Shown: positions 1 through 64,000, counted from the first letter of the stretch. The stretch is DNA of 64,000 nt from an uncultured bacterium (GCA_964573295.1 CAZNJE010000002.1:31351-95350); one strand, 5' to 3'. Notes: generated by a model from the letters alone, not told the origin. Made by a program: numbers and translations.

Positions 1-1593
1 TGAAGGGAATCGCTTCCAGTGATCCGGCATCAGGATGTAGAGATTCTCGGTAAAGGAGAGGATGCCGTGGGGGTGCGTGTGGATCGGATTGAGCGTCTCG
101 TAGGTGAACAGATAGCGCCAGATCAGGGGGATCGCACAACCGGCACTCACGGCGAGGATCGACTGGCCCACCCGGCGCACGCCTTCAGACCGCCAAGGTC
201 GGAAGAGGAGCATGGCCAGGAAGAAGACGCCCAGCGAGAAGAGCACGTACACCGCCGCGAAGATGTGGGTCGCCGTGGCCCCGAAGGCGGCCAGCGCCAC
301 CACGATGAGCACCTTGCGCCGCCCGATCCGCAGGATGTACTCCAGGGAGCCCGCGAGGGTGGCCCAGGCCAGTACGAACCCCATCTGGCTCCCATAGCCC
401 AGCCGCAGAAACGTACCCCGATTGATTTCTCCAAAGAAGACGAACGCCAAGAACGTGGCGAACAGGGCCGAACCCTCACTGCGCAGGAGCCGGCGGGCGA
501 AGGAGTGGAACACCACCAGCGCCAGAGGCATCAGTAAGCCCGGTAGCAGATCCCACAGGTGCAAGACCGATGTGTGACAGAGCACCGCTTGAACGGCGAA
601 CAAGACATGGAAGAAGCCCTTCCGGGCGTCGACGGCAGCACCGTCACCGTCAATGTAGAAGGTCGTGCGCGGCAGGATGCGGTCACGTTCGACCATCTCG
701 CGCAGAGAACTGACGTGATCCAAAGCGTCGGTGTCGAATCCGAACATACCACCCGCGTAAAACCCCAACGCCGACGCCGATGCCACGAGCACTCCGAGCA
801 CGAGTAGGGTCGCCCAGCGTGGTGCGACCGGGTGATCCTTCTTGTGCTGGTCACCAAGCCGGTAGGCCTCGCGCATGATGCGCTGCATGACCGGGTTGAC
901 CTGCTGTTGGGCCAGAAACAGGTCCGCTTGGGTGGGATCGTCCGCCCCCGCGCTGGCCGCCCCCATGCTGGCCGCGCCCGCGCTAGCCGCGTCCGGCGCG
1001 TTCCCCTCCGGCTCTCCGCCAGACCGCGCGCCGGTTGGCTTCCCACGGGCAGTCCCGGGGCCCCGCTCATCGGCTCCCGATATCTCGAACCCCGGCAGGG
1101 TGGAAGCCGCAACCGCCCTCTCCTCTGCTTCCCGTCGGCGAACCGAACGCGCGTTGCGCAAGTCCCGGACGAGCAGGAGCAGGGCCAATACGAAGACGAC
1201 CCCGGCCAGGGCCCAGATGAGCGTCGAGAGCCGGCCCAGGACGAAGGGGCTCGTGCCGGGGTCCGGCACGGGCCCCAACCCCACATCTCCCCCAAAGAAC
1301 CACCCTACCAGGGCCACGGCGGAGAAGATGAAGACGCTGAGCCCGAACGCCCGTGTCAGTCGGGCCGCCAGTCCGATCGTCGACCGTGGCAGTACGAGCA
1401 GGTGGAGGACCCATCCCGGCAACAAATAAAGGAGCGGGGCACCCAGCAGCACGCGGATGGTCTCGGGCAAGAGGGGCGCCGACAGGTACAGCGCCGGATA
1501 GGCCAATGGGCTGGCCAGCCACATCAGATTGAGTGGACTGATGCGCCGACGCATCAAAGGCGTCTGGTCGACCTCGCGATCCCCGGCTTCCAT
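1..1593 (-). CDS. Polytopic membrane protein (5' partial; runs off window start), possible GT-C-type glycosyltransferase paired with the upstream GT2
   Basis: Hand translation of the minus frame from ATG at 1593 stays open to position 1 (not in the ORF track because no stop lies inside the window). It shows multiple hydrophobic helices and a low-complexity loop (GAASAGAASMGAASAG). It starts 25 nt downstream of the GT2 stop, an arrangement typical of polyprenyl-P-sugar synthase plus membrane glycosyltransferase pairs. Confidence 0.45.
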   Translation of the reverse strand, partial: MEAGDREVDQTPLMRRRISPLNLMWLASPLAYPALYLSAPLLPETIRVLLGAPLLYLLPGWVLHLLVLPRSTIGLAARLTRAFGLSVFIFSAVALVGWFFGGDVGLGPVPDPGTSPFVLGRLSTLIWALAGVVFVLALLLLVRDLRNARSVRRREAEERAVAASTLPGFEISGADERGPGTARGKPTGARSGGEPEGNAPDAASAGAASMGAASAGADDPTQADLFLAQQQVNPVMQRIMREAYRLGDQHKKDHPVAPRWATLLVLGVLVASASALGFYAGGMFGFDTDALDHVSSLREMVERDRILPRTTFYIDGDGAAVDARKGFFHVLFAVQAVLCHTSVLHLWDLLPGLLMPLALVVFHSFARRLLRSEGSALFATFLAFVFFGEINRGTFLRLGYGSQMGFVLAWATLAGSLEYILRIGRRKVLIVVALAAFGATATHIFAAVYVLFSLGVFFLAMLLFRPWRSEGVRRVGQSILAVSAGCAIPLIWRYLFTYETLNPIHTHPHGILSFTENLYILMPDHWKRFPS

Positions 1594-1617
1594 GCCTCGC
1601 TCACGGCCTCCCCGAGA

Positions 1618-2289
1618 TCAACTGAACCGCTTCTTGAATAGGAAAGACAGGTTCTCCCAGCCATCGCGCCATTTGCGGAGCTTCACCTCACCCACTCGCG
1701 GCTCGTACTTGATGTGGTACTCCGCGAATCGCATGTCCGGGTGTCGGGCGGCCTCGATCTTGATCTCCTGCGAGAAAGGCATGCCGTCGCTGGTTACACT
1801 CAGCTTCTCGAGCACCGATCGCTTGAAGACCCACATGCCGGATTGAGAATCGGCCATCTTCTGCCCGAAGAGCAGCCAGGTAACAACGGTGAGCAGCCAG
1901 TTGCCGAACTTGTTGGTGGCATTCATCGCTCGCGGGTCCTTGAGCGGGAAGCGCGCCGCGGAAATAAAGTCGAGTCCTTCGGCGACCAGGTGATCGAGCA
2001 GTCCCGGAATCTCCTCGGGCGGATAGGTGCAGTCGGCATCCATCGTGACGATCACATCCTGCGTGGCCGCCGCCATGCCGGCCTTGTAAGCCGCCCCGTA
2101 TCCCTGGCGCGACTCGAAGACGACCTTGGCACCGAGTTGCTCGGCCACTTCCTGGGTGCGGTCGGTGGAGTTGTTGTTCGCAACCACGATTTCGTCGACG
2201 AAGTCCGGCAAGCGCTTGATGACCGCCTGGATGCCTTCCTCCTCGTTGTAGGCTGGGATCACCACGCTGATCGTAAGATCTTGATACAA
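1618..2289 (-). CDS. Family 2 glycosyltransferase (polyprenyl-phosphate sugar synthase / DPM1-like)
   Basis: ISVVIPAYNEEEGI...TMDADCTYPPEEI motifs (GT-A DxD) with a C-terminal amphipathic tail. Likely TTG start at 2289, directly preceded by GGAGGAGAGG. The ORF-track frame extends to 2346. Confidence 0.85.
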   Translation of the reverse strand: MYQDLTISVVIPAYNEEEGIQAVIKRLPDFVDEIVVANNNSTDRTQEVAEQLGAKVVFESRQGYGAAYKAGMAAATQDVIVTMDADCTYPPEEIPGLLDHLVAEGLDFISAARFPLKDPRAMNATNKFGNWLLTVVTWLLFGQKMADSQSGMWVFKRSVLEKLSVTSDGMPFSQEIKIEAARHPDMRFAEYHIKYEPRVGEVKLRKWRDGWENLSFLFKKRFS

Positions 2290-2726
2290 CCTCTCCTCCT
2301 GGGCCGCATGTGTGAGGATCCGGCCGCTTCCAGCGACCGGCCCCAATTCAAACTGGGCTGTGCGTCAAACAGCAGGTAGCCACCACCCTCCAAAATACGC
2401 TTCCGCCTAGTGTATCGGACGATTCGGTCCGGTTCCAGCACGGCGAGTGACCTGCTGGCGGGCATCCAGCAAGGCGACCGATCGCCCCGAATGGCTGATC
2501 CCCACCAATCCGCCCTTCTGCGCGCAACAGACTTGCGCCCGCAAACCCCTGCAGAAAAGACGATTACAGATATCGCCAGGAGGGAACGATGCATAGATCG
2601 GATGCTAGAATGCGACCGCGGTCTCACCTCAGGCAGGGCACCCGCATTCCTCGGCGGACCAACTGACGGTTCAGTGAACGGGAAACGAGGCCTTCTCGGG
2701 CCGCAACGAGCGAGGAAGTGTACGCG

Positions 2727-4727
2727 ATGAAAAACTGGACGGTGGGCAAGAAGATCACATTCGGCTTCGGATTCGTGGTGTTGGCTCTGGCCGGCGTGTC
2801 CCTGTGGTCGGTCGTGGGCGTGGGCACGATCGTCAAGAACGCCGAGGAGGTCATCGGGGGTAACGTGCTGCGCGGTGAGATGGTCCAGCGTGAAGTAGAC
2901 CATCTCAGCTGGGCCAACGCGGTCAACGCCTTGCTGAACGATGATTCGGTCACCGAGCTGTGCGTCGAGACCGATCCCCACAACTGCGCCTTCGGCCAAT
3001 GGTACTATGGCGAAGGGCGCCAGCACGCCGAAGAGCTGGTGCCGGAGATCGCCGGAGACCTGCGAGCCATCGAGTCGTGGCACGATCAGCTCCACGCCTC
3101 GGCCGCCGAGATCGGCAAGGTCTTCCACCAGGCCGATTTGGGCCTGAGTGCCGAGTTGCAAGCGAAAAAGGTGGACCATCTGCGCTGGGCCGCCGTGATC
3201 CAGGACGCCATGCTCGACCAGAGCTGCACGCATGCCGATGTGCAGACCGATCCCCGCCAGTGCAAGTTCGGCCAGTGGTACTACTCCGACCAGGTGCGTC
3301 GACTACGCTCGGAGGATCCGGAGTTCGATGCGGTCTGCCAAGCGGTCGAGGCCCCGCACCGCAAGCTGCACGAGAGCGCTGTCCACATCAACGATCTCTT
3401 GATCGAGGACCAGCGCGCCGAGGCGCTCGAACACTACAATACGCACACCGCCCTCCTCGCGGATCAAACCTGCCAGGCGATCGACGACATCATCGCCTGG
3501 AACGAGCGGGCCGTCGACGGACTCCAGGCCGCGCAGCAGATCTATGCCCAGGAAACTCAACCTTCGCTCGCGCAGGTGCAGGGATATCTGGGCGCGATTC
3601 GTGACAAGGTAACCGACAACGTCATGACCGATGAGCAGATGCTGGCCAGCGCCACCCAGACCCGCTTCGGCGTACTGGCGATCAGCATCGTCGCCGGTGT
3701 GATCGCCATCCTGCTCGCGATCACGATCACCGCCGGCATCAAGAAGCTGCTCACCCGGATCGCCACCGCACTCGAGGAAGGCGCCGCCCAGGTCTCGAGC
3801 GCCGCCAACCAGGTCTCCAGCTCGAGCCAGTCGCTGGCCGAGGGCTCGGCCGAGCAGGCCGCCTCGATCGAGGAGACCTCCAGCAGCCTCGAGGAACTGG
3901 CCTCGATGACCCGCCGCAACGCCGACAACGCCGGCGAGGCTAACACGCTGGCCGCCACGGCCCAGGCCAATGCCACGAAGGGCGGCGAGGCCATGCAGCG
4001 GATGGGCACGGCCATCGACGACATCAAGGGTTCCTCGGACGAAACGGCCAAGATCGTCAAGACGATCGATGAGATCGCCTTCCAAACAAATCTGCTCGCC
4101 CTCAATGCCGCGGTCGAGGCCGCCCGCGCCGGCGAGGCCGGCAAGGGCTTCGCGGTGGTGGCCGAAGAGGTGCGCACCTTGGCCCAACGTTCGGCCGAGG
4201 CCGCCAAGAACACCGCCGATCTCATCACGCAGGCGGTGACAAAGGCCGAGAGCGGCGTCTCGATCAGCCGCGAGGTGGCCGAGGTGCTGAAGGAGATCGA
4301 CCATGGGTCGACCCGGGTCAACGAACTGATCGGGCAGATCACGACGGCCAGCCGCGAGCAAGCCGAGGGCGTGGACCAGATCAACACCGCCGTCTCTCAG
4401 ATGGACCAGGTGATCCAGTCGAATGCGGCCAACTCTGAGGAAACCGCCGCGGCGGCCGAAGAGATGAGCGCCCAGGCCGAAGAGCTCGACTACAACGTGG
4501 CCGAGCTGCAGCGGATGGTCCGCGGCTACGCGCACGATCGTCCGGGCCGGTCGCGCCGTGGGCCGCAGGCCGCGCGGCAGCGGGCCACGCGGCAGCGGGA
4601 AGAGAGTCCAGTTGAGACGCCGGTGGTCGCTAATCTGGAAATTGATACGGTGCAAACGAGGCAACTGGGGAATGCGGGGATGGTCATCCCAATCGACGAT
4701 CACGAGGAGATCGCCGCGAGCTCTTAG
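2727..4727 (+). CDS. Methyl-accepting chemotaxis protein with tandem CZB-like domains between two TM helices
   Basis: N-terminal TM, then two repeats carrying DHLxW...CxFGQWYY...HxxLH (CZB-like 3His/1Cys signature), a second TM, then the MCP signalling domain ([42 protein letters not shown]). ATG at 2727 lies 8 nt after GAGGAAG. Confidence 0.9.
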
Positions 4728-4862
4728 GAGGTATCCGCCGGGCGTTCAAACGAATGTCCGGCGCGTATTGCGCAGACCGAGGGCTTTCGCGCCACACGGA
4801 GCCGGGCCGGGCCGGGCTGGGCCGGGCCGGGCTGGGCCGGGCCAGCTCGTGTGTGCCCCAGC

Positions 4863-6524: not shown

Positions 6525-6654
6525 CGACGCCCTCCTGCAAGGTCATGCGGGTCTAGCGCAATGTGGTTACGATTCGGGCAAGTTCGTGGGCTGGGGGTGA
6601 GGGTGAGGGTGAGGGGACGCCAACAGGACGCCCCCCCACAAGAACGAATCCGCT

Positions 6655-13376: not shown

Positions 13377-16127
13377 CTAGCGTACGATCAGGAATCGTCC
13401 CTCCTGCTCCCCACCGCGGCCCGCGACCCGGTAAAGATACATCCCCGCGGTCACCGGCTGGCCGTGCTCGTCGCGGCCGTCCCAGTGAAGGCCCCCGACG
13501 CCCGCGGGCAACAGGCTCTCGAGGCCGCGTACCTGGCGTCCCTGGAGATCGAAGATGCTCGCCCGCACCAGGCCCCCCTGGCCGAGCTCGAAGCGTAGCG
13601 TGGTCGTGCCGGGACCCGGGTTGGGCGCGGCGCCCAGCAGGCGAAGCCCGCTCGCCAGACGGTTCTCCGCGATGCCCTGGCTGCCCTCGACGGCAAAGCT
13701 CGCCGCCGGCATGCACAGGCCCGCTTCTTCGCCGTCATCGGCGTAGGCGCGCCAGAAGTAGGTGCCGTCGGCCAGCGGCGCCGATACGGTCCAAGCTGTC
13801 TCAGATGCGCCTTCGGGCACACCGGCCGTACTCGTGACCAGGTCGGTCAACAACGCGTCCGCGTAGATCTGGAACCCGTAGGTCAACTCGTCGCCGGGAT
13901 CTGGATCGACGGCGTTGCTCACCACGAGCGTCGGCACGGACGTGTGGACGGTCTCGCCCTCACCGGGGCTCACGAGCGCCGGCGCACCCGGCGCCTGGTT
14001 TCCCGAAAGCAGGCTGGAGATGACGACGTCGTCGATATACCAACCCTCGCCGCCGGTGTTGCCGTCGGAGCCGAAGCGGAAACGGAACTGCGCCACTCCT
14101 TCCACCCCATCGAGGGTCACCGTGCCGGCGGTCCAGTCGAAGGAACCCGAGTAAACCGGCGTGTCCTCGGCAAACGGGCCCGGCTGGCTGGAGGCGCGGA
14201 TCGTGTGCGTGTAGCCCTCATCGGGCAGGACCTGCCCCCACGGCGTTCCGTTGACGGTCATCTCCACGATCCCGCCGTCATAGGCCCGGCCGGTCCAATA
14301 ACTGCTATCCTCGGCATCCATCCAGTGCCAGAAGGCGAGCTGCGTCAGGCCACCGATGGTGACCTCGGGGGTCTCGAGCACGCCGTCGGCCAGGCCCGTG
14401 TAGTCACCTGAGCCCGTGCTGCCGAACTTCCAGCTCGTGGCGCCTCCGGCGGTGTGGTTGCGGGTACCGCTCATGTGCCACTCGTCGTTGTAGCCGCTGC
14501 TCTCCACGTGATGGGTCCAGTCGCCTTGGCCGGACTCGATGTCGTCGGCGAAGACGACCGGCAGGTCACCGACCATGTACTCATGCTCGAAGGTGACCTC
14601 GAACCCATCGGCGGTCACCACGAAGCACAAGGGCATCCGATGCCCGGCCGGACAATCGGCGGCCACGGTGAAGCTGAGCGGGTTGCCGGCGTTGTCGCCC
14701 TCGCCGCGGGCCGGAATCCCGCCCAGCGACGCCTGGGCGGCACCCAGCTGCACGTAGGGATCATCGGTTACCAGGGTGACGACCGCGTTGGCGGCCGCCT
14801 CGGCAATCGCATCGTTGCGCAGCGTGAGCACCAGCTCGCAGGTCTCGCCCGGATCGGGCTTCCCGTCCATGTTGCCGCCGCTCAGGGCCAGATCCAGCAG
14901 CGTGAGGTAGATGCCCGCGGTCTTCATCAAGTAGATGTTCTTCGGAATGTTCTCGGCCACCAGGCCGGGGATCTCCGAGTCGGCCGGCCAGAAGCCCGAA
15001 CCGTCGACCTCGGTACAGAAGCTGTAGATCTTCGGCTTGCTCGTCTGCTCACCGTAGGCCCAGTCGGTCGTCGTACCCGAGCAGCTGTAGCCGATCGTCT
15101 CCCCCGCCTGGCCGATCGCATAGCCCGCTGAGCCGTTCATCGCCTGAGCAACCTCGCGGAAGAGGGCGTCATCCTCCGTGTGGGAAGTCGTCCACGACCA
15201 GGGAATGAGAATGGCGCCGTAGACGCTGTGGTAAGAATCGTGCGAGACAAACTCGTGGGCATTGATGAAGTTGACCATTGCCTGCACGCACGGCTCCGAT
15301 GCCGGCTCCGGACCCAGGTAGACGTCGCTGCAGGGATCATAGCTGATACCGCCATGGTCCCACATGTACGGATAGTTGCGGTTCGGGTCCACGCCGTAGC
15401 AGCTGCTGCCGGCGTTGTCTCGCCGGTTCTTGCGCCACATGCCCCCGCCGCCCGGGTAGGTTTGCTCGTTGTACAGATACCCGTCAGGATTGACCACCGG
15501 GACGAAGTAGGTTTGCCGGTTGTCGACCAGGTAGGTGATCTCCGGATCGGTGCCGTAATTTTCGCAGAGGGAACGGATGGTCTCGATCAAGACGTTCACC
15601 GTGATCGGCTCGCGCGCGTGGTGGAGTGCGTCGAAGAGCACCTCGGGCTCGTCGGGCTCGTCGACCTCGACATTGTCCGACAGCTTCACGGCCCAGATGT
15701 GATTGCCTTCGTGCGTGGTCCCCAGCGAGAACTTCTCGCTCAGAATTTCGGGATAGAGCGAGCTGAACTCATCGAGATAACCCACCATCTCAGTGTAGGT
15801 GTAGAAGTCGCCGAAATTGCGCTCCGAAGTACGTTGCGAGGCGTAATGCTCTTCCATGTCCGGGATCTGGATCTCGACGACGAAGCCGAGCCGCTCCAGC
15901 CGGCGGATCTGATCGTCGTGGCTCACCAGGATCAGCTCCTCCCCTGGCACGAACTCCATGATGTCGAGATCGGGAACCTCGCGCGCCAGATTCTGCAGAT
16001 CCGCCGCATCGACCCACTGCAGCCGCACCTGCACTTTGGGGTGAGAACCGGTGTAGGCATCCGCAACGCCGCAGGCGCTGACGCAGATGCCCAAGAGAAT
16101 CATGAACAGGACCAGCCGTGGGTGCAT
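13377..16127 (-). CDS. M14-family zinc carboxypeptidase with C-terminal T9SS-type (Por_Secre_tail / FlgD-Ig-like) sorting domain
   Basis: Lipoprotein-like signal (GICVSAC), M14 motifs (HAREPIT, VNPDGY), C-terminal tail ...APNPGPGTTTLRFEL...IFDLQGRQVRGL...GMYLYRV. Confidence 0.85.
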   Translation of the reverse strand: MHPRLVLFMILLGICVSACGVADAYTGSHPKVQVRLQWVDAADLQNLAREVPDLDIMEFVPGEELILVSHDDQIRRLERLGFVVEIQIPDMEEHYASQRTSERNFGDFYTYTEMVGYLDEFSSLYPEILSEKFSLGTTHEGNHIWAVKLSDNVEVDEPDEPEVLFDALHHAREPITVNVLIETIRSLCENYGTDPEITYLVDNRQTYFVPVVNPDGYLYNEQTYPGGGGMWRKNRRDNAGSSCYGVDPNRNYPYMWDHGGISYDPCSDVYLGPEPASEPCVQAMVNFINAHEFVSHDSYHSVYGAILIPWSWTTSHTEDDALFREVAQAMNGSAGYAIGQAGETIGYSCSGTTTDWAYGEQTSKPKIYSFCTEVDGSGFWPADSEIPGLVAENIPKNIYLMKTAGIYLTLLDLALSGGNMDGKPDPGETCELVLTLRNDAIAEAAANAVVTLVTDDPYVQLGAAQASLGGIPARGEGDNAGNPLSFTVAADCPAGHRMPLCFVVTADGFEVTFEHEYMVGDLPVVFADDIESGQGDWTHHVESSGYNDEWHMSGTRNHTAGGATSWKFGSTGSGDYTGLADGVLETPEVTIGGLTQLAFWHWMDAEDSSYWTGRAYDGGIVEMTVNGTPWGQVLPDEGYTHTIRASSQPGPFAEDTPVYSGSFDWTAGTVTLDGVEGVAQFRFRFGSDGNTGGEGWYIDDVVISSLLSGNQAPGAPALVSPGEGETVHTSVPTLVVSNAVDPDPGDELTYGFQIYADALLTDLVTSTAGVPEGASETAWTVSAPLADGTYFWRAYADDGEEAGLCMPAASFAVEGSQGIAENRLASGLRLLGAAPNPGPGTTTLRFELGQGGLVRASIFDLQGRQVRGLESLLPAGVGGLHWDGRDEHGQPVTAGMYLYRVAGRGGEQEGRFLIVR

Positions 16128-21496: not shown

Positions 21497-21841
21497 GTCA
21501 ATTCCTCCTGATCTCCTCCCGCTGCGAGCGGGGTCCCGTGGGCTGCTGCGGCGGTCCTTCTTCGTCTCGAGCGGCCGGAGAGGCCGAAACCGGTTCAGGC
21601 AGACAGAACCGTTTACAATTGTATCATCTCTGAGCCCCTGATTTCATGGGGTTCGCTGCGCAACCCTCCATAACTAAAGGAGCCCAGCACTAAAGGAGTC
21701 AAGCAACTGGCCGATCTCCCAAGCGTGGCGATGCCTCGATGTGGCCGTGGCCCGCCTTCAGCATGATGGATGCTGCATAGATGCTCTTTACTGATTGGTG
21801 TCCACGGATCGGTGCCCACGGAGACTGGAAGGGGGCCCTGC

Positions 21842-26802: not shown

Positions 26803-27075
26803 CCCAAACGCGGCCCTAGCCCAGACGCGGCTCGAGCCCAGACGCGGCTCGAGCCTGAACGCAGCTTCGGCACCAACGGTCGAGGAGACGAAATGCACCC
26901 AGCCCTCCATACCTACCAATCGGCACACCAACACCCCGGTCGCCGCGCGCCGGCATGCATCTCGGTCCACAGAACCACGCCAACCACGCGAACCGGACCG
27001 ACCTCCCCAGCCGCAGCGACCGCGCGAAACGGTGCGACTACGCGAAACGGTGCGACTACGCGAAACGGTGCGCCC

Positions 27076-27786
27076 ATGCCGGCCGGGACGCCCTTGAGAG
27101 CCCGAGCGCTCCCAGGAATCAGGTCACTTCCGCGAACCACGTCGTTCCTCGGGACCTTGGTACCTCTGGTTCCCTTGGTTCCCTTGGTTCCTTTGGCTCC
27201 TTTGGCACTCTTGACTGTTCTCACTCTCACGGCCCTCTGGACGCCGAACGCCACGGCTCAGGTCGAGGCCGCCGACCCGGTCACCGAAAGCGCATCCGCC
27301 CAGGTCGAGGCCGCCGACCCGGTCACCGAAAGCGCATCCGAAGCCGGAGGTGTCAGCAGCACCGCGGCCGATTCTCTGCTCATCCAGGTTCGTAAAGTGA
27401 TTGAGCCCAGCGACGGCACGACAGTGCTCCATTTCCACGCCACCGAGCGTTGCGCCGACTGCATCCTGATCGAGACCTACGCCCGAGACGCGATCGAAGA
27501 GCAGTTCGTCTCAGAGCTCGAGGATGGTCAGCTAACATTCCGGCTGATCAACATCGACGAGCCACGAAACGCTCCTTTGCGCGAGTACTACGACATCGAC
27601 GACACCATGGTCGTGCTGACCCGCTGGCGAGACGGCCAGCAGCTCGAGTGGATGGCCCTTTGGGAGGTCTGGGACTATGTCGAGGATCCTCTCTCGATGG
27701 GCTTGTATGTCACCGACGAAGTATTCAGCTATGTCGAGAAGGACGAGCGCGAGCGGGAGGAAGCCGCCGTTTCGGGTAATGACTAG
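27076..27786 (+). CDS. Secreted hypothetical protein (repeat-containing N-terminus)
   Basis: ATG at 27076. Signal peptide with (LVP)x3 from a 9-bp repeat, AQVEAADPVTESAS x2 from a 42-bp repeat, then a ~150-aa acidic domain (HFHATERCADCILIE...). No family recognised. Confidence 0.5.
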   Translation: MPAGTPLRARALPGIRSLPRTTSFLGTLVPLVPLVPLVPLAPLALLTVLTLTALWTPNATAQVEAADPVTESASAQVEAADPVTESASEAGGVSSTAADSLLIQVRKVIEPSDGTTVLHFHATERCADCILIETYARDAIEEQFVSELEDGQLTFRLINIDEPRNAPLREYYDIDDTMVVLTRWRDGQQLEWMALWEVWDYVEDPLSMGLYVTDEVFSYVEKDEREREEAAVSGND

Positions 27787-31415: not shown

Positions 31416-31455
31416 CGCTGGCGCGGTTGCGGGGCACAATGAGATGCGCTGACGT

Positions 31456-31574
31456 CGCACGATCGGATGCCCCACGATCGGATGCCCCACGATCGGGTGC
31501 CCCACGATCGGATGCCGCACCATCGGATGCCGCACGATCCGACGTCGTATGATCGGTCGTAGCACGATCGGCAC
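31456..31574. repeat. 15-bp tandem repeat x8 (c[ac]cacgatcggatgc) in the intergenic region upstream of the cydA-like operon
   Basis: Read directly from the sequence. Copies degenerate toward the 3' end. Confidence 0.9.
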
Positions 31575-31625
31575 ATCTTCCTACTCATAAGCTACTTAAC
31601 TAGATAGTACCTGGACAAAGTCTCA

Positions 31626-37158: not shown

Positions 37159-37219
37159 TCAGATCCCGGCCCGCGTACCCACCCGCGCGGCCGGGCCGGC
37201 AGCTGATCAGGTCCCGGCC
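37126..37219. terminator. Duplicated ~48-bp element with GGCCGGG...CCCGGCC stem-loop between convergent rluA-like and TDT transporter genes
   Basis: Two direct copies (37126-37171 and 37174-37219), each containing a 7-bp inverted repeat flanking a 17-nt loop. Positioned at the 3' ends of both convergent genes. Confidence 0.45.
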
Positions 37220-38525: not shown

Positions 38526-39458
38526 TTGGATCAGCAATCCAGAGCCTATCTGCACGGACTGGGCGCCGTGCTGGCGTGGTCGACCGTGGCATCGGCCTTC
38601 AAGCTGACGCTGCGGGAGCTGACGCCGGTGGCCATGCTCTTCTACGCGTCCCTGACCTCCCTGCTCATCCTGCTGGCCATCTTGACCTGGCAGGGCCGTC
38701 TGGGGGTCTTGAGGCAGATCCGGGGTCGCGAGTGGCTCGCCTATGCCGGGCTCGGGTTCCTCAACCCGTTTCTCTACTACACGATCCTCTTCCGCGCCTA
38801 CCAGCTCCTGCCCGGCCAGGAGGCTCAGGCTCTCAATTACACCTGGGCCATCACGCTGGCGCTCTTGTCGATTCCGATTCTGAAGCAGCGTATCCGGCCC
38901 GCCAGCCTCGTGGCGCTCGTGATCAGCTTTGCGGGGGTCTGGGTCATCTCCACACGGGGGGACGTGTTCTCGACGCACTTCGCCGAGCCGGTGGGCGTGC
39001 TGCTGGCGGTGGGCAGTTCGGTCGTTTGGGCGCTCTTCTGGATCGGCAACGTGCGCGATCCTCGGGACGAGATCGTCAAGCTGGCCCTGTGTTTCGTCTT
39101 CGGTACCGCCTTCGTGGGCCTCTACGCCCTGGCAACCGGGGATCCCTTGGCGGTGCGGTGGCCGGGGGTCGCCGGGGCAATCTACGCCGGCCTCTTCGAG
39201 ATGGGTCTCACGTTCGTCCTGTGGCTCACGGCCCTGCGGCTCTCACGCACGACCGCGCAGGTAGGCAACCTCATCTTCCTGTCGCCCTTCATCTCACTGG
39301 TGCTGCTTCACTTCGTGGTCGGTGAGGAGATCTTCCGCTCCTCGATCGTGGGGCTGGTACTCATCCTCGCCGGCATCGCCCTGCAGCGGCGCACCGACCG
39401 GATCACTCGGCAAACCGCGCCAGTGAGCCAACCCGCCGCCGGCAGCTGTGATCCGTGA
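38526..39458 (+). CDS. EamA/DMT-family transporter
   Basis: Two EamA-like 5-TM halves. TTG start preceded by GGGGAGGAGGG. Confidence 0.8.
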   Translation: MDQQSRAYLHGLGAVLAWSTVASAFKLTLRELTPVAMLFYASLTSLLILLAILTWQGRLGVLRQIRGREWLAYAGLGFLNPFLYYTILFRAYQLLPGQEAQALNYTWAITLALLSIPILKQRIRPASLVALVISFAGVWVISTRGDVFSTHFAEPVGVLLAVGSSVVWALFWIGNVRDPRDEIVKLALCFVFGTAFVGLYALATGDPLAVRWPGVAGAIYAGLFEMGLTFVLWLTALRLSRTTAQVGNLIFLSPFISLVLLHFVVGEEIFRSSIVGLVLILAGIALQRRTDRITRQTAPVSQPAAGSCDP

Positions 39459-39536
39459 GCCCACCCGCCCGGCCGGCAGCAGTGAACCGTGAGCCACCCG
39501 CCCGGCCGGCGGCCGCGAGACCGCAAGCTGGGCGCG

Positions 39537-40832
39537 TCAATCGGTTGCCTGCACCACGCGACGCATGAACTGATCACCCACCATCAGGCCGAGGGCGCCG
39601 TGCCTGGCCTGTACCTCGTCGAAGGCGGTCGTCTCGTCCGGCTCATCACCGCGCCGCCAGATGGCGACCGGCACCGGATCACGTCCGTGCTGGCCCGTCT
39701 CGACCGGCGTCGGATGATCGGGCAGAACGGCCAGCGTCCACTGCGGGCTGCGGCCCTCGAGGCCTTCCAGGATCGGGCGCACCAGCCGGTCGTCGAGGTA
39801 CTCGATGCAACGGATCTTGAGATCCAGATCGCGCGCGTGCCCCGCCTCGTCCGAAGCCTCCACGTGGACGTAGACGAGATCGTGATCGCGCAGAGCCTCC
39901 AGACAGGCTTCGGCCTTGCCCTCGTAGTTGGTGTCGTGCAAGCCGGTGGCCCCCGGCACCCGGATGACGTCCATGCCGGCATAGACCCCGAGACCCATGA
40001 TCAAGTCCACGGCGGAGATGACGGCGCTGCGAACGCCGTATAGCTCCTGGAGCGTCTTCATCCGGGGCCGGCATCCGGGCGACCAGGTCCAGATGCAGCT
40101 GGCCTCGTCCTGGCCCTTTTCTCTCCGTGCCACGTTGATGGGATGGTCACGCAGGATCTCCAGCGAACGGCGGTAGATCTCGCGCAGGCGCTCAGCGGTT
40201 GCCTCGGGGGCTGGCCCGGCGGTGCCCTCGGCGGTTGGCCCGGCGGTGCCCTCAGCGGCTTCAGTGCCCGCCCGCGGCAGGAGGTCTTCGGCCAGATCGT
40301 CGAGGTGATCGTGCGGTGGCGCGCATACTACCGCCGAGCTGGCCCATCCGCCGCGCAGCAGTAGAAGATGCCGGTAGCTGATTCCCGGATAGAACTGGAT
40401 GGGCCGGTCACCCCGCCCCCCGCCGAGCTCGCGATCCAGATCCCGGATCAAGCGCGAGGCTTCCTCACTCGAGATATGGCCTGCCGAGTGGTTCTTGATC
40501 CGGCGGGAAACCGGCGATACGGCATCGTGGAGGCAGATCAGATTGCAGCGCAGGGCCACGTCATCCTCGGCCACCTCCACCCCCATACTAGCGGCTTCCA
40601 GCACCGCCCGACCCTGGGAGACCTTGGCCGCGTCGTAGCCCAGGACCGCCAGGTTGGCCACAGCCGAGTCGGCTGGGCCCGTCTCCCCAATAGTGCGCAG
40701 GCAGCCCATGCGCCCCTGGCGTGCCACCTGGTCGATGGTGGGCTTCTGGGCCACCATCAACGGGGTCAGGCCGCCAAGGCGTTCGATGGGCACGTCCGAC
40801 ATGCCGTCGCCAAGCACGATGACTGACTTCAT
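39537..40832 (-). CDS. Cofactor-independent phosphoglycerate mutase (ApgM)-family protein; by context the 'proposed homoserine kinase' type
   Basis: Full-length ApgM-family similarity (MKSVIVLGDGMSD...HDTNYEGK...HVEASDEAGH). Immediately downstream of thrC in the same orientation. In-frame (AEGTAGP)x2 from a 24-bp repeat. Confidence 0.8.
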   Translation of the reverse strand: MKSVIVLGDGMSDVPIERLGGLTPLMVAQKPTIDQVARQGRMGCLRTIGETGPADSAVANLAVLGYDAAKVSQGRAVLEAASMGVEVAEDDVALRCNLICLHDAVSPVSRRIKNHSAGHISSEEASRLIRDLDRELGGGRGDRPIQFYPGISYRHLLLLRGGWASSAVVCAPPHDHLDDLAEDLLPRAGTEAAEGTAGPTAEGTAGPAPEATAERLREIYRRSLEILRDHPINVARREKGQDEASCIWTWSPGCRPRMKTLQELYGVRSAVISAVDLIMGLGVYAGMDVIRVPGATGLHDTNYEGKAEACLEALRDHDLVYVHVEASDEAGHARDLDLKIRCIEYLDDRLVRPILEGLEGRSPQWTLAVLPDHPTPVETGQHGRDPVPVAIWRRGDEPDETTAFDEVQARHGALGLMVGDQFMRRVVQATD

Positions 40833-44258: not shown

Positions 44259-44541
44259 GGCGGAATCCTATCGTTGAATATTCGTAAATCACAAGCACTC
44301 ACGAGTCCTTTATTCGACAAAGCGGCCGAATTGCAAGATCATTATTCACCTTTATTGCATCCAGATCGAATCTGACTCGATCTCCCCATCACCTACTCCA
44401 GCCCATGAGAATGGCGGCCCCAGCACGCTGCCGGGGCCGCCTCTATTGTCCTCAGACTGATCCGCAATCGCTTCCGCAATCGCTCGGCAATCGCTCCGCG
44501 ATGTCTCCGGGATGTCTCCGCGATTCTCCGCTACTCCTCCG

Positions 44542-45366
44542 CTACTTCTCCGCCTGATGCATCACGACCTGCGGGAAGGGAATCTCGATGCCGTTGGTGT
44601 CGAACTCCTCCTTGATCTTGCGCGTCAGGTCGAACTTGACGCCCCAGTAGTCGGAGGTCTTCACCCAGGGACGAGCGACCAGGTTCACACTGGAGTCGGC
44701 CAGCTCGGATACGGCGATCTGATACGCCGGATCTTTGAGCACGCGCTCGTCGGACTCGAAGGTCTTCTTGATGATCTCCTCGGCCTTGGCGATCGAGGAG
44801 CCGTAGCCGATGCCGAAGACCATGTCGACCCGGCGGGTGTCGTTGGCGGTGATGTTCTTGATCGTGTCGCCGAAGATCTTGCTGTTGGGAATCATGATCC
44901 TGATGTTATCCGGCGTGGTCATCTCGGTCGTGAAGATGCCCATGTCCCGGATCGTGCCGGCGGCCCCGCCCGCGTCCACGTAGTCACCGATCTTATACGG
45001 CCGGAACACCAGCAGCATGATCCCGGCCGCGAAGTTCGAAAGCGAGCCCTGCAGCGCAAAACCGATGGCGAAGCCGGCCGCACCCAAGACGGCGACCAGC
45101 GAGGCGGTCTCGACCCCGAAGTTGCCCAAGGCGGCCACCACCGCGAAGATGATCACCAGGTAGTAGACGATTGCGCTCGTGAAACCCACGATGGCCGGAT
45201 CGGTCTTCGAACGGGTCATGGCGTTTCGAACCAACTTGCGCGCCCAGCCAGCAACGATGCGACCGGCGATCAGCACCAGAATGGCGCCGATCACACTTAT
45301 CCCGTAGGTGGTCGCGAACTTGACGATCGTGTTCATGATCTGTTCCATCGTGCTCAGTTCTTCCAT
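44542..45366 (-). CDS. MscS-family small-conductance mechanosensitive channel
   Basis: 3 TM plus MscS beta-domain (FRPYKIGDYVDAGGAAGTIRDMGIFTTEMTTPDN). GAGGAGGAGAGG SD. Confidence 0.85.
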   Translation of the reverse strand: MEELSTMEQIMNTIVKFATTYGISVIGAILVLIAGRIVAGWARKLVRNAMTRSKTDPAIVGFTSAIVYYLVIIFAVVAALGNFGVETASLVAVLGAAGFAIGFALQGSLSNFAAGIMLLVFRPYKIGDYVDAGGAAGTIRDMGIFTTEMTTPDNIRIMIPNSKIFGDTIKNITANDTRRVDMVFGIGYGSSIAKAEEIIKKTFESDERVLKDPAYQIAVSELADSSVNLVARPWVKTSDYWGVKFDLTRKIKEEFDTNGIEIPFPQVVMHQAEK

Positions 45367-46395: not shown

Positions 46396-46732
46396 GGCAC
46401 AAGATCCTCCCTGGCGTGACCAGATCTCGGCCGTGCCACGACCCGTCCGGGCACGACACGTCCCCGTGATGAATTCACGCCCCTTTTGGGGTTCTCCTAT
46501 CGAGAGTGGTCTTGAGATTGCACTCTACGTTTCACACGTTCTGCGGGGCCGGAGAAGCGCACGGCCCGCCCACTTCACGGCCAGCATGATGAAGCGAACC
46601 ATCGTTGCAAGAGAAGGTTCCGTCCCGCGGAGCCTGGGAATGGTGGAGGACAACGCTTGCCGATGTCAAGCGCGCGTGGCCGGAGATGCCTGTCACGAGA
46701 GGGCCCGAGGCCACCTAAGCGCAAGCCCCGAG

Positions 46733-46864
46733 GGCCCATCTGCGCCGCCCCCGAGCCTCCTTGGCGCCAGCCCGGCGGCCCATCTGCGCCGCCCCCGAGC
46801 CTCCTTGGCGCCAGCCCGGCGGCCCATCTGCGCCGCCCCCGAGCCTCCTCAGCGCCGGCTGGTC
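46733..46864. repeat. 44-bp tandem repeat x3 downstream of glnS
   Basis: cccatctgcgccgcccccgagcctccttggcgccagcccggcgg repeated with a 44-nt period (46735, 46779, 46823). Confidence 0.9.
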
Positions 46865-48678: not shown

Positions 48679-48750
48679 CCCTCGCTGGTCGGACCGGGTG
48701 CCCCCTCGCTGGTCGGACCGGGCACCCCCCCGCTGGTCCGACCGGGCCGA
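48679..48750. repeat. 24-bp tandem repeat x3 between gltX and glnS
   Basis: ctcgctggtcggaccgggtgcccc-like units at 48681, 48705 and 48729. Confidence 0.85.
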
Positions 48751-48756
48751 CCCGAC

Positions 48757-50250: not shown

Positions 50251-50690
50251 CTCAGTTGATGGTGATGGTGTCGGGGGTGGCGGTACCGGCGGTGGTGTCG
50301 GCGGTGGCGGTGGTGGCGGTGGTGGCGGTGCCGGCGGTGGTGTCGGCGGTGTGGACGATGCCATGGAAGACCTCATGATGGTGTCCCACGTGGAACGACC
50401 TGCCTCGCAATTGCCTACGAAAAGTCCCTGCAAGAGCCCCTGCAAGAGCCCCTGCAAGAGCCCCTACGAAGAGCCCCTGCGAAAAGAGCTGATACCGCAT
50501 GCGGGCCCGATGTGGGCCCGCATGTGAAGAGAGAATGTTCGGGGTTTCAAGGGCCGGAGTCAAGCCAAGCCTGGAACGGCTCGACTCACGCGGCCCACCG
50601 TCCGGTCGATAGGGACCGTCGTAGAACACAAAGAGGTCGCCGGCGTCACCCTCAGGCAACCGCCGTCCGAGACCAACCGCCCAACGTCCT

Positions 50691-58201: not shown

Positions 58202-59367
58202 GCGACGCCTACGACAGCAGCAGGTCAGATGCGGTCTCCGATCCCTACGATGTGTTCTTCTACGAGGCCTTCGAGGAGGAGGCCGATTTGCTGGGGCAGT
58301 ACCTGCCCACCGACCTGCGTGCCGGCTTCACCTGGAAGACCATTCAAGAAACCGGCCAGGTCGAGCCAGCGGCGCCCATCATCAGTACGCGCACCCAGTC
58401 GGTCCTGCCCCCGGCCTGGGCGCCCAAGCTGCAGGCAATCCTGAGCCGCAGCACCGGTTACGACCACCTGATCCACTACCGGGAGACCACCGGCATCTCG
58501 CTGCCGTGCGGCTACCTGCCGCGCTACTGCCACAGGGCGGTTGCGGAGCAGGCCATGCTTCTGTGGACGGCCCTGCTACGCCGGCTCCCACGTCAGATCG
58601 AGCAGTTTCGCCACTTCGAGCGCGACGGGCTCACCGGCGCCGAGTGCAAGGGCAAGACCCTGATCGTGGTGGGCGTCGGCAACGTGGGCTCACAGGTCGT
58701 CCGTATCGGACAGGGTCTGGAGATGCGGGTCATCGGCGTCGACCTCGAGCCGAAGGACGACTCTGTGCCCTATGAGCCCATCGAGAAGGCGCTACCGCAC
58801 GCGGATGTGATCGCCTGCTGCATGAACCTGACGCCGGAGAACGTGGGCTACTTCAGTCGCGAGCGCCTGCTGGCGGCGCCGCGGGGCGTCGTGTTCGTCA
58901 ACGTCGCCCGCGGGCAGATGGCGCCCTCGCGAGTGTTGCTACCGTTGCTGAGAGACGGACACCTGGGCGGCGTGGGGTTGGACGTCTTTGCCGAGGAGAG
59001 CGCGCTCGCCGTTCAGCTCCGCGGGGAAGTGCCGGGGCAAGCCATCGCGGGCGTCGGCGATGCGAGCCCGTGCGCAACCGACACCGATGAAGCCGGACCT
59101 GGCGAAGCCGGACCTGACAAGACCGGACCTGACAAGACCGGCCCTGACGAGACCGGCCCTGGCAAAACCGGACCTGGCGAGACCGGTTCCGGTGAGGTGG
59201 CCGCGGAGGTGCGCGCCACACTCGAGTTGGCGCGCACGGCCGGCGCGATCCTGACCCCGCACAACGCCTTCAACAGTGTCGAAGCCGTGGATCGCAAGGC
59301 GCAGCAGAGCATCGAGCAGATCGAGGCGTTTCGGGGCGACGGCGCGTTTCTGTGGCCGGTGCCATAG
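58198..59367 (+). CDS. D-isomer-specific 2-hydroxyacid dehydrogenase family protein (NAD-binding) with a repeat-encoded loop insertion
   Basis: GKTLIVVGVGNVGSQV Rossmann motif, catalytic region (VNVARG...D, LTPHNAF His). In-frame (E/K)(A/T)GPx x7 insertion from a 15-bp repeat at 59089-59193. Confidence 0.8.
   Translation: MSDAYDSSRSDAVSDPYDVFFYEAFEEEADLLGQYLPTDLRAGFTWKTIQETGQVEPAAPIISTRTQSVLPPAWAPKLQAILSRSTGYDHLIHYRETTGISLPCGYLPRYCHRAVAEQAMLLWTALLRRLPRQIEQFRHFERDGLTGAECKGKTLIVVGVGNVGSQVVRIGQGLEMRVIGVDLEPKDDSVPYEPIEKALPHADVIACCMNLTPENVGYFSRERLLAAPRGVVFVNVARGQMAPSRVLLPLLRDGHLGGVGLDVFAEESALAVQLRGEVPGQAIAGVGDASPCATDTDEAGPGEAGPDKTGPDKTGPDETGPGKTGPGETGSGEVAAEVRATLELARTAGAILTPHNAFNSVEAVDRKAQQSIEQIEAFRGDGAFLWPVP
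59089..59193 (+). repeat. 15-bp tandem repeat x7 inside the 2-hydroxyacid dehydrogenase coding region (in frame)
   Basis: gaagccggacctggc / gaagccggacctgac / aagaccggacctgac / aagaccggccctgac / gagaccggccctggc / aaaaccggacctggc / gagaccggttccggt. Confidence 0.9.
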
Positions 59368-59432: not shown

Positions 59433-61484
59433 CTAGGCGCCGAACGCCTCGTCGATCGCGCCGCGCACCGTGTCCGCATCGGCTTCCGCCGCCAGGGTGA
59501 CCTGCATCCCTTCCTCCGCGCCCGCGGCGCGCTCGACCGCGTAGCGCGCGCCCGGATTGCCGGCCCATGCGCGGCGGGCCAGGCCGTGCGAAACGTCCCA
59601 GGAGAGCATGCCGCGGGCGCGCCGGTCGGCCTCGGCCGATCCGTCGAGCACCATACCGAAACCACCGTTGATGACCTCACCCCAGCCCACGCCGCCGCCA
59701 TTGTGAAGCGACACCCACGTGGCGCCGCGGAACGCGTCGCCCACGAAGTTCTGCACGGCCATGTCGGCGGTCAGTTGCGAGCCATCGAGGATGTTGGCCG
59801 TCTCGCGGTACGGCGAATCGGTCCCCGAGACGTCGTGATGGTCCCGGCCCAGCACGATCGGCGCGGTGACGCGTCCTGCGCGGATCGCCGCGTTGAAGGC
59901 CAGCGCGATATCGATCCGTCCTTGCCGGTCCGCATAGAGGATGCGGGCCTGCGAGCCGACCACCATGCGGTTCTCCTCGGCCTGTCGGATCCAGCGCACA
60001 TTGTCGAGCATCTGCTGCTTGATCTGCTCGTCCGCACTCGCGGCCATCTCTTCCAGGATTCCGGCGGCGAGCCGGTCGGTCGTGTGAAGGTCGGCCGGGT
60101 TGCCGGAGGTACAGACCCAGCGGAAGGGCCCGAACCCGTAGTCGAAGCACATCGGTCCCATGATGTCCTCGACGTAGGAGGGATAGGTGAAGCCGCCGTC
60201 TGGGCGGTTGATCCCCGGGGCCCCGGCGCGCGAGGCCTCGAGCAAGAAAGCGTTGCCGTAGTCCCAGAAGTTCATGCCGCGTGCGTGCAGGGAATGGATC
60301 GCGGCCACCTGGCGGCGCAGCGATTCCTGCACGCGCTCCGCGAAGCCCTCGGGATCGGCCGTCATCATGCGGTTGCTGTCTTCGAAGGGCAACCCGGCCG
60401 GGTAGTAGCCACCCAGGTAGGGATTGTGAAGCGAGGTCTGATCGCTCCCCAGCTCGACCGAGATGCCCTCCTTGGCAAGCCGCTCCCACAAGTCGACGAT
60501 GTTGCCCAGGTAGCCGATCGACACCGGCTTGCGCTCGGCCACGGCGCGATCGATGCGCGAGAGCAGTTTGTCCAGGTCCTCTTCGTATTCGTCCAGCCAG
60601 CCCTGTTCGTGACGGGTCTTGAGCGGCTTGGGGTTGATCTCGGCAATGACACCCACCGCGCCGGCGATCACCGCCGCCTTCGCCTGCGCGCCGCTCATGC
60701 CGCCCAGGCCGGAGGTCACGAACAGCTTTCCCTCCAGGCCCTGGCCGGGTTCGAGGCCGAGATACTTGCGGCCCGCGTTGAGCAGCGTGATGGTCGTGCC
60801 GTGGACGATCCCCTGCGGGCCGATGTACATGAAACTGCCGGCAGTCATCTGCCCGTAGCTGGTAACGCCCAGGGCCGAGAGCCGGTCGTACTCGGCCCGC
60901 GAGCTGTAGTTGGGAATCACCATGCCGTTGGTGACAACCACCCGTGGCGCTTCCGGGTGCGAGGGGAACAGGCCCAGCGGGTGCCCCGAGTAGAGCACCA
61001 GCGTCTGCTCCTCGGTCATCTCACAGAGGTACTTCATCGTCAGCAGGTACTGCGCCCAGTTCTGGAAGACCGTGCCGTTGCCGCCGTAGGTCACCAGCTC
61101 GTAAGGATGCTGCGCGACCCGCTTGTCGAGGTTGTTCTGGATCATCAGCATGATCGCGGCGGCCTGCTTCGTTCGGGCGGGGTAGTCGCCGATCGGACGG
61201 GCCTTCATCTCGTAACTCGGGCGAAACCGGCGCATGTAGATGCGTCCATCGTTGGCCAGCTCGCGCGCGAACTCCGGCGCCAGGCTCTCGTGCATGGTTT
61301 GGGGGAAGTAGCGCAGCGCGTTCTGCAGCGCCAGCTCCTGCTCCCGCCGGGACAACACCTGCGGACGGACCGGCGCGTGGTTGATGCCCGGTTCCTCGGG
61401 GGGCATCTCGGGGATCGACGCCGGGATCCCCTGCCGGATGGCATCCTGGAACGATTGGCGCACCTGGGTGTCGCTGCTTGTCAT
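59433..61484 (-). CDS. hutU: Urocanate hydratase (long form)
   Basis: Full-length urocanase similarity (YGGNGTVFQNW, GQMTAGSFMYIGPQGIVHGT, NAD-binding GLGGMSGAQ). ATG at 61484 after GGGAGG. Confidence 0.9.
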   Translation of the reverse strand: MTSSDTQVRQSFQDAIRQGIPASIPEMPPEEPGINHAPVRPQVLSRREQELALQNALRYFPQTMHESLAPEFARELANDGRIYMRRFRPSYEMKARPIGDYPARTKQAAAIMLMIQNNLDKRVAQHPYELVTYGGNGTVFQNWAQYLLTMKYLCEMTEEQTLVLYSGHPLGLFPSHPEAPRVVVTNGMVIPNYSSRAEYDRLSALGVTSYGQMTAGSFMYIGPQGIVHGTTITLLNAGRKYLGLEPGQGLEGKLFVTSGLGGMSGAQAKAAVIAGAVGVIAEINPKPLKTRHEQGWLDEYEEDLDKLLSRIDRAVAERKPVSIGYLGNIVDLWERLAKEGISVELGSDQTSLHNPYLGGYYPAGLPFEDSNRMMTADPEGFAERVQESLRRQVAAIHSLHARGMNFWDYGNAFLLEASRAGAPGINRPDGGFTYPSYVEDIMGPMCFDYGFGPFRWVCTSGNPADLHTTDRLAAGILEEMAASADEQIKQQMLDNVRWIRQAEENRMVVGSQARILYADRQGRIDIALAFNAAIRAGRVTAPIVLGRDHHDVSGTDSPYRETANILDGSQLTADMAVQNFVGDAFRGATWVSLHNGGGVGWGEVINGGFGMVLDGSAEADRRARGMLSWDVSHGLARRAWAGNPGARYAVERAAGAEEGMQVTLAAEADADTVRGAIDEAFGA

Positions 61485-63243: not shown

Positions 63244-63324
63244 GGGACGGTCTGCTGGCGAGAGCGCCGCAGATGAAATGACCGCCGGCGGAAAGTCCGC
63301 CGGCGAGCGAGACGCATCGCGCTT

Positions 63325-63990
63325 CTAGGATTCCTCGCGCGAGTCGGGCTCGGCGCCTGTCCCGGGCCCCGTGCGGCCCCGACCCTCCATCCACCGGTCC
63401 ATCAATCGGCCGGCGTGTTCACGGCATCCCAGACCAAAAGCCAGCGCGGCCGCCAGAGCCACGGCCCCGATGGTGATGCCGAAGAGCAGCCTTACGATAT
63501 CGCCGGCGATGCCCATCTGATCGAGCGCCATGAAGACGGCCAGCACCACCACGGCCACGCGGGTCACCGGGGCAAGCGAGGGGATCCGGTCGCCGACGAT
63601 CCCACCCACCGCATCCCCGGCCAGTCGGGCTACATAGAGGCCCAGGCCCAGAACGGCCAGGCCGAGCAGCACGTCTGCACCAAAGGCCAGGAAGCGGGTC
63701 ACCAGCTCCACGCCGAGCTGAAAGCCGATCAGGTCGCAGGCTTCGACCACCGCGAAGAGCAGGATCGCGGCGACGGTGATGTTCGCCGCGATCCGCGACG
63801 GCGCGCGCTTCGGATCCGGCGCTGGCACCCCGATCATGCGCGCGATGCGTTCGTCGCCAACCGCGCGCACCACCCGGGCCACCAGTTTGCCCAGCAGGCG
63901 GGCCGCCACATAGCCGACCGCCAGAACCAGCACCGCCAGTCCCAGATTCACCAGGTCATCGCCGAATTGATAGGTAAATTCTTCGAACAT
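63325..63990 (-). CDS. Membrane protein with conserved-TM-helix repeats (MscS-associated 'TM_helix' type)
   Basis: Three similar ~25-aa helices each followed by G-D/E motifs (LGLAVLVLAVGYVAARLLGKLV; ITVAAILLFAVVEACDLIG; AVVVLAVFMALDQMGIAG). GGAGA SD. Confidence 0.55.
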   Translation of the reverse strand: MFEEFTYQFGDDLVNLGLAVLVLAVGYVAARLLGKLVARVVRAVGDERIARMIGVPAPDPKRAPSRIAANITVAAILLFAVVEACDLIGFQLGVELVTRFLAFGADVLLGLAVLGLGLYVARLAGDAVGGIVGDRIPSLAPVTRVAVVVLAVFMALDQMGIAGDIVRLLFGITIGAVALAAALAFGLGCREHAGRLMDRWMEGRGRTGPGTGAEPDSREES

Positions 63991-64000
63991 GTCTGTCTCC

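Follow-up and report, generated by a model that had tools for sequence, protein, structure and literature searches.

Among the described bacterial systems closest to the one treated here, the genome of Burkholderia pseudomallei holds a 'preponderance' of tandem arrays, mostly intergenic and, where they fall within genes, with units in multiples of three (U'Ren et al. 2007, PMC1853098), and the species stands out as a short tandem repeat outlier in a tree-of-life survey (PMC12699852). The subject of this analysis is a stretch of 64,000 nucleotides from an uncultured bacterium (GCA_964573295.1, CAZNJE010000002.1:31351-95350; hereafter the window, with positions counted from its first letter), which is unusually rich in tandem arrays, both in intergenic DNA and in frame within enzymes. 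The likeness to B. pseudomallei and its relative B. mallei is close, as their genomic arrays are mostly intergenic, mostly keep to multiples of three in coding sequence and are polymorphic between isolates, and slipped-strand mispairing has been invoked for them. The arrays in the window differ in that their units are 9-48 bp long and present in 2-8 copies, all repeat families are local and there is no enrichment of short motifs, and their host is taken to be a free-living sediment bacterium rather than a pathogen. The two densities are not directly comparable because the detection criteria differ.

Other known systems share part of this pattern. The variable-number tandem repeats (VNTRs) of mycobacterial interspersed repetitive units (MIRUs) have units of tens of base pairs, often lie at gene boundaries or in intergenic DNA and vary between strains. 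MIRUs form a dispersed family with a shared consensus, whereas the units in the window are mutually unrelated. Contingency loci in Haemophilus, Neisseria and Campylobacter likewise change copy number through slippage, but they consist of 1-7-bp units that shift the reading frame or promoter spacing of surface and virulence genes, whereas units of that size occur at chance level in the window and the frame is kept. In the account of RecA-independent rearrangement in E. coli by the Lovett laboratory (Feschenko et al. 2003, as cited in PMC3753628), repeats of this size gain and lose units by slippage, are too long for mismatch repair and are stabilised by single-strand exonucleases, which limit the process. 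The system there is a laboratory reporter, whereas here it is a natural lineage. We know of no natural lineage whose genome-wide excess of arrays has been tied to these exonuclease genes. Set against these systems, the window is a fairly extreme example of a well-known slippage phenomenon and not a new mechanism.

Array density in the window

Arrays were called with Tandem Repeats Finder (TRF) at a score of at least 50, overlapping calls being merged, which gave 26 arrays with periods of 9-48 bp and 1.9-8.6 copies, together covering 1805 bp or 2.8% of the bases in the window (72 TRF rows at the looser score of at least 30). One of the 26, at 50495-50526, proved to be a hairpin. Successive quarters of the window hold 4, 10, 6 and 6 arrays, and two more lie within the 3.7 kb past its right end. 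Markov simulations of the window at orders 1, 3 and 5 give 0.35-0.85 arrays by chance, with a maximum of 3. The bacterial background was drawn from a search with GlnRS, which returned 80 matches of 58-70% identity from many phyla; one, L005, is a true relative, and the loci fetched around the other 79, from diverse bacteria and totalling 1.34 Mb, were scanned with identical TRF settings. This background has 3.6 arrays per 64 kb and 0.47% of its bases in arrays, its median locus has none, and the highest density in any locus of at least 15 kb is 17.5. Loci with a GC content above 0.60 have 6.0 arrays per 64 kb, E. coli K-12 has 1.3 and a Ralstonia megaplasmid (GC 0.69) has 7.7. The density of arrays in the window is unusual and far above chance, being about 7 times that of the diverse background and about 10 times that of a syntenic relative. 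The original prediction, made from the sequence alone, had put the number at no fewer than twenty arrays of 9-48-bp units in 2-8 copies and had called the density atypical; both statements are borne out by the TRF calls, and each of the eleven coordinates that it named coincides with an array.

The excess belongs to a particular size class. Perfect tandem duplications with units of at least 9 bp number 19 in the window, 2 in 22.7 kb of the syntenic relative L086 and none in 50 kb of E. coli, and there is no excess in the window of 7-8-bp units or of 1-4-bp microsatellites, which are at or below the Markov expectation. A core motif common to the units, for which the original prediction had proposed a check, did not emerge, the mean similarity between units being 5.81 against 5.80 +/- 0.12 for GC-matched random segments.

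Because the source is a metagenome-assembled contig, because De Bruijn assemblers can mis-resolve arrays longer than k, and because coverage of the comparison strain is only about 5x, the arrays might have been made or mis-sized by short-read assembly or binning, though this is hardly credible. Three Logan contigs from an independent assembly of run SRR7048224 (L081, L096 and L097) match the window at 100% identity across 39921-43008, 56410-59964 and 61054-64000 and reproduce four arrays exactly, including those in the phosphoglycerate mutase ApgM (40191), a 2-hydroxyacid dehydrogenase (59093) and urocanase (59459), so that an artefact, which the original prediction had named as what would overturn it, is excluded for the arrays checked. 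Assemblies from other samples hold the same arrays with diverged units and other copy numbers, the preservation of reading frame described below is a biological pattern, and the arrays, at 32-135 bp and mostly imperfect, can therefore be spanned by reads.

Turnover between strains and relatives

The strain contigs L082, L083 and L095, which come from other samples, are 84-97% identical to the window at a synonymous divergence (dS) of about 0.1. At most high-identity arrays they differ from the window mainly by whole units between collinear flanks, with changes ranging from a single unit to several (Table 1), which agrees with the active slippage-type process that the original prediction had suggested. 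The low-identity arrays at 15084 (compared with L084) and 59459 (compared with L082 and L083) are invariant. These relatives have private arrays as well and lack two of those in the window; L095 is without the 180 bp around the 27023 array and without the region of the 29360 array.

A graded series of more distant relatives was retrieved through a cytochrome fusion protein encoded in the window. Its members L085-L087, with 75% amino-acid identity and a GC content of 0.63, are nearly identical to one another and syntenic with the window over 23-46 kb; in the orthologous 22-23 kb the window has 13 arrays and L086 has one (p = 0.0012). Other sparse relatives have none (L088), one (L091) and three (L089) in about 22.6 kb each. 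The relative L092 (80% amino-acid identity) has three arrays in 7.9 kb, and L005, syntenic for GluRS-GlnRS-EamA, holds within 13 kb six short-unit arrays and a single 126-bp protein-domain repeat. Pooled counts come to 26.6 arrays per 64 kb for the dense genomes against 3.5 for the sparse relatives, and in these contigs the excess is confined to part of the clade. Array positions are non-orthologous among relatives, as in the RluA orthologue of L092, where a 12-bp array of 11.8 copies occupies a site different from that of the KADRA array in the window, and this argues for a continuing process rather than inherited arrays. L089 (GCA_964585945.1) and L090 (Logan, SRR7048224) represent a second related species from the same run as the window organism, with 63% identity in the cytochrome marker; its array density is lower but not negligible, and its three arrays are clustered at 7084-7772.

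Strain comparison also brings out differences outside the arrays. A 107-bp insertion or deletion relative to L082 at 54336-54442 is flanked by the microhomology GAGATGC, which points to slippage-type events, and a 476-bp segment (56056-56531) is missing in L082. A 1.85-kb segment at 61532-63385 holds a 553-residue open reading frame (ORF; 61582-63243) with a strong coding signal and no Pfam match; the Logan contig L096 has the segment too, and in L082 and L083 (92-97% identity) 159 bp of unrelated sequence take its place, a strain-specific gain or loss of a gene.

Placement of arrays relative to genes and reading frame

Arrays are concentrated between genes, as 13 of the 23 that could be classified lie in the non-coding 12% of the window (p = 5e-7), at about nine times the density in coding sequence. 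All ten securely coding arrays have periods divisible by three, as against 7 of 13 intergenic or leader arrays (Fisher p = 0.019), and they are confined to protein tails, linkers or loops. Another three arrays run across stop codons, altering the C-terminal tails of a beta-helix protein, the RluA-type synthase and EamA. That arrays occur in frame within enzymes, as had been predicted, is seen against both structures and orthologues. In ApgM, the array falls within a 46-residue stretch that is unaligned to PDB 2zkt between two aligned blocks (27 residues in the structure) and corresponds to an 11-residue gap in the orthologue alignment. The RluA-type synthase has about 29 added residues, including the KADRA units, directly ahead of its HRLD motif when compared with PDB 2i82, and the dehydrogenase has seven GPDKT-like units (389 residues) against one in relatives of 95% identity (354 residues).

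The genes for GluRS and GlnRS are adjacent (46863-50457), as they also are in L005. Their longest ORFs run on through repeat arrays and begin 40-120 codons ahead of the conserved N-termini, and for this reason automated start-codon calls vary among strains. Judged from the position of the conserved starts, the arrays upstream of GluRS, GlnRS and the hyp197-like gene may be leaders rather than coding sequence.

Table 1. Tandem arrays of the window, with one neighbouring hairpin, and their copy-number differences in strain contigs or relatives
Position	Strand	Unit and copies	Setting	Difference from the window
942..990	-	15 bp x3.3, AASAG units	in frame in a 531-residue membrane protein of unknown function	
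4568..4599	+	15 bp x2.1	C-terminal tail of methyl-accepting chemotaxis protein (MCP), past MCPsignal domain	
4801..4843		GGGCCGGGCCGGGCT x2.7, copies 100% identical	intergenic, convergent MCP and radical-SAM genes; G-quadruplex motif match	
6595..6615		GGGTGA x3.5, TRF score 42	intergenic, upstream of radical-SAM gene; G-quadruplex motif match	
15084..15135	-	21 bp x2.4, 72% match, old	within M14 peptidase domain	length equal in L084
18746..18804		26 bp x2.3, period not divisible by 3	intergenic, convergent M20 and M14 peptidase genes	
21673..21705		16 bp x2.1	divergent promoter region	
25367..25492	+	21 bp x6 (7-residue units)	N-terminal region ahead of signal-peptide core, secreted beta-helix protein	at 25420, L095 +2 units
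26792..26866		17 bp x4.4	across beta-helix stop codon into intergenic DNA	L095 +4 units (8.0 copies)
27023..27072		18 bp x2.8, copies 100% identical	upstream of hyp197-like gene	
27155..27213	+	9/27 bp, LVP units	start of hyp197-like gene	
27259..27340	+	42 bp x2.0, QVEAADPVTESASA	hyp197-like protein	L095 3.0 copies (window 2.0)
28752..28832		21 bp x3.9	decayed intergenic stretch; ArsR/ArsP/thioredoxin genes here in syntenic L086	
29360..29427	+	12 bp x5.7, AAQV units	insertion in truncated DsbD_TM homologue	
31443..31577		15 bp x8	intergenic, directly downstream of yjbQ (30999-31415)	at 31451, L095 +15 bp (one unit), plus an extra neighbouring array
36476..36544	+	15 bp x3.5-4.6, KADRA units	loop ahead of HRLD motif, RluA-type pseudouridine synthase	L095 +3 units
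37121..37219		48 bp x2, GC-rich hairpin in each unit (z = -4.3)	across RluA stop codon, convergent genes	
39423..39510		34 bp x2.7, 17-mer CCCACCCGCNCGGCCGG in common with 37121 array	across EamA stop codon, convergent genes	
40191..40260	-	24 bp x2.8, AEGTAGP units	11-24-residue insertion, interdomain linker of ApgM	
44461..44553		three abutting 11-bp arrays	from mscS stop codon to asnC/lrp-type regulator gene	
46725..46858		44 bp x2.8-3, 97% match	intergenic, directly downstream of GlnRS	
48679..48747		24 bp x2.9	GluRS stop codon to conserved GlnRS start (leader or N-terminal extension)	
50260..50358	-	9 bp x9.6	possible Pro-rich N-terminal extension or leader of GluRS	at 50266, L082 shorter by 33 bp
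50414..50480		12 bp x4.5	upstream of GluRS	L082 one unit fewer
50495..50526	-	hairpin, not a tandem array: 12-bp stem then T-rich run (fold z = -3.9)	likely terminator of S8 peptidase gene	
59093..59186	+	15 bp x6.3, GPDKT units	2-hydroxyacid dehydrogenase	relative 7 units fewer
59459..59521	-	27 bp x2.3, 75% match, old	urocanase C-terminal tail	

Origin of the arrays

The arrays have the marks of the minisatellite class of VNTRs, with head-to-tail units above chance, whole-unit differences between strains, coding periods divisible by three and an excess in non-coding DNA. They have probably arisen by replication slippage or tandem duplication, with unusually fast gain or long persistence in a restricted clade, and been filtered by selection. 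Under this reading, whatever 9-48-bp sequence is present would be duplicated locally, head to tail. Birth of an array would take place by RecA-independent replication slippage or by tandem duplication between short homologies, later expansion and contraction would follow from the same slippage or from unequal exchange, and selection would purge arrays that break the frame or are otherwise harmful. The high standing density would then reflect a raised birth rate or a lowered removal of mid-size tandem duplications in the lineage; no dedicated machinery would be involved, and most arrays would be neutral or nearly so.

Loops of this unit size, 9-48 bp, escape mismatch repair. Loss of mismatch repair was considered as a cause and set aside, as the microsatellite excess expected from it is not seen in the window; speculatively, the same absence points to single-strand exonuclease functions or to properties of the replisome. 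A more specific proposal would make the window species, L092 and perhaps L005 a 'minisatellite mutator' clade, in which a replication or repair function that limits tandem duplications of at least 9 bp has been lost or altered and mismatch repair is intact, with RecJ, ExoI, ExoVII, ExoX or a replisome or polymerase property as candidates. This proposal is doubtful; if true, it would explain why 9-48-bp arrays are enriched 7-10 times relative to the syntenic sister and microsatellites are not.

Several points weigh against slippage or tandem duplication as the origin of the arrays. The mechanism is inferred from patterns rather than observed, the portion of the genome examined is a small sample (the window and the 3.7 kb past its right end, about 68 kb), and the copy numbers come from short-read assemblies, with the comparison strain at about 5x, in which mis-resolution is possible near the k-mer length. 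The rate of change is known as a modest minimum, most high-identity arrays having changed over a dS of about 0.1, and lies far below that of classical hypermutable VNTRs, so the excess may as well be due to slow removal as to fast creation. Periods divisible by three are also more frequent among the 'non-coding' arrays than the expected one third, and some of these may therefore be translated leaders or N-terminal extensions or be under unrecognised constraints.

Relaxed selection, or a small effective population size, could let tandem insertions and gene decay pile up with the mutation process unchanged. Decay is indeed visible in the window, in the form of an ArsR remnant, a DsbD_TM homologue that has lost about 85 residues and acquired an AAQV x5 insertion, and a missing ars/thioredoxin block; moreover, housekeeping enzymes tolerate insertions and the 2-hydroxyacid dehydrogenase has a ratio of nonsynonymous to synonymous divergence (dN/dS) of 0.34. 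This explanation is nonetheless unlikely. In 11 of 14 gene comparisons (dS 0.1-1.1) dN/dS is 0.03-0.16, which indicates that purifying selection is intact; it is 0.12-0.17 against more distant relatives, and coding density is 88%. The host genes are under ordinary purifying selection, without sign of general relaxation, all securely coding arrays preserve the frame, and drift alone fails to explain why microsatellites and 7-8-bp duplications are not enriched. An adaptive system of variability, in which copy number at contingency or tuning loci would be selected to vary loops, leaders and promoters, possibly through an unrecognised driver, would fit the copy-number variation from strain to strain, the presence of several arrays in 5' leaders, promoters and secreted proteins, and the three abutting 11-bp arrays upstream of the Lrp-type regulator gene. 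It is very unlikely, however, given that the units share no motif, that microsatellites are at chance level, that surface genes are not targeted, and that cytosolic housekeeping enzymes (RluA, ApgM, the dehydrogenase and urocanase) and the spaces between convergent gene ends have arrays just as well. Array positions are not conserved among relatives, Pfam scans of 40 ORFs found no reverse transcriptase, recombinase or Cas domain, and on/off switching by frameshift is impossible with in-frame units of at least 9 bp. The interpretation offered in the original prediction thus stands as regards the atypical density and the slippage-type process, and is not supported as regards relaxed selection and an unidentified diversity mechanism.

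Known classes of repeat were compared with the arrays and rejected. A shared core motif or dispersed element is not supported, the similarity between units being that of the GC-matched controls and the repeat families being local; for REP/BIME, MITE and MIRU families in particular, a shared consensus is missing and only 2 of the 11 non-coding regions tested fold well. CRISPR arrays do not fit, as the units abut without spacers and the 40 scanned ORFs contain no Cas domain, nor do diversity-generating retroelements, since these ORFs likewise contain no reverse-transcriptase domain and the repeats are tandem, are found in numerous unrelated genes as well as between genes, and vary by whole units. 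Hairpins are no general explanation either: 9 of the 11 tested fold no better than shuffled sequences, and the exceptions are 37115-37225 and the hairpin at 50495-50526.

Individual sequence features

The 17-mer CCCACCCGCNCGGCCGG is common to only two arrays (37130-37194 and 39460-39509), both at convergent gene ends, and has 5 matches against 0.6 expected; it may be a small terminator-associated element duplicated in tandem. Ten canonical G-quadruplex motifs occur in the window against 3.8 expected, half of them within tandem arrays, at sites that include 4804-4841, 6588-6609 (the telomere-like GGGTGA repeat), 37165-37184 and 61762-61779. The 11-bp periods at 44461-44553 are close to one helical turn, and these 93 bp do not align with the corresponding spacer of L086.

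The stretch 26803-29739 differs in gene content from its counterpart in L086 (3180-7125), which encodes ArsR, an ArsP permease, two thioredoxins and DsbD_TM. All that remains of these in the window is a 22-codon ArsR remnant (29048-29113) and a DsbD_TM homologue (29299-29739) shortened by about 85 residues, and a methyltransferase-like gene (27895-28608) stands there instead. The stretch is thus a site of local gene decay or replacement.

Host organism and gene content

The gene map was built from ORF scoring based on GC content at third codon positions and on codon usage, together with Pfam. It is a normal bacterial map, with chemoreceptors, a TonB-dependent receptor, M14 and S8 peptidases, an SLT-LysM lytic transglycosylase, PsiE, SLAC1, EamA, ApgM, the RluA-type synthase, ThrC, a Cys/Met pyridoxal-phosphate enzyme, AsnC, MscS, GlnRS, GluRS, the 2-hydroxyacid dehydrogenase and urocanase; no tRNA genes or Rfam families were found in the window. 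Those ThrC homologues that bear a name (71-73% identity) are assigned to Gemmatimonadales and Candidatus Krumholzibacteria by their labels, and on the basis of these labels and of FlgD_ig domains the host is probably a bacterium of the FCB group (Fibrobacterota-Chlorobiota-Bacteroidota) near Gemmatimonadota or Krumholzibacteriota. The FlgD_ig domains, which are of a C-terminal sorting type, end two M14 and one S8 secreted peptidases (13377-16127, 18827-21496 and 50691-53996), an arrangement suggestive of type-IX-like secretion in an FCB-group organism. The contigs of the Joint Genome Institute (JGI) sample that yielded one close relative are named 'MLSed', and the host is taken to be a free-living sediment bacterium.

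The cytochrome fusion used to retrieve relatives is an 895-residue protein (32908-35595) in which a membrane domain resembling subunit I of cytochrome bd is fused with multihaem cytochrome c domains. Its homologues at E <= 1e-20 number more than 4000 in several phyla, and here it is always preceded by a conserved protein of about 350 residues without a Pfam family (31811-32881).

Significance

For annotation and strain typing, the arrays matter in that they lengthen ORFs, blur start codons (as in GluRS, GlnRS and the beta-helix protein) and add loops to enzymes, and they would be usable as strain markers in metagenomes. Mid-size tandem duplications are the class that mismatch repair leaves unpoliced, and if the density seen in the window holds genome-wide, the dense lineage and its sparse syntenic relatives would form a natural contrast for finding what controls how such duplications are born and lost in bacteria. 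It is in this contrast between dense and sparse sister lineages that the chief value of the finding lies.

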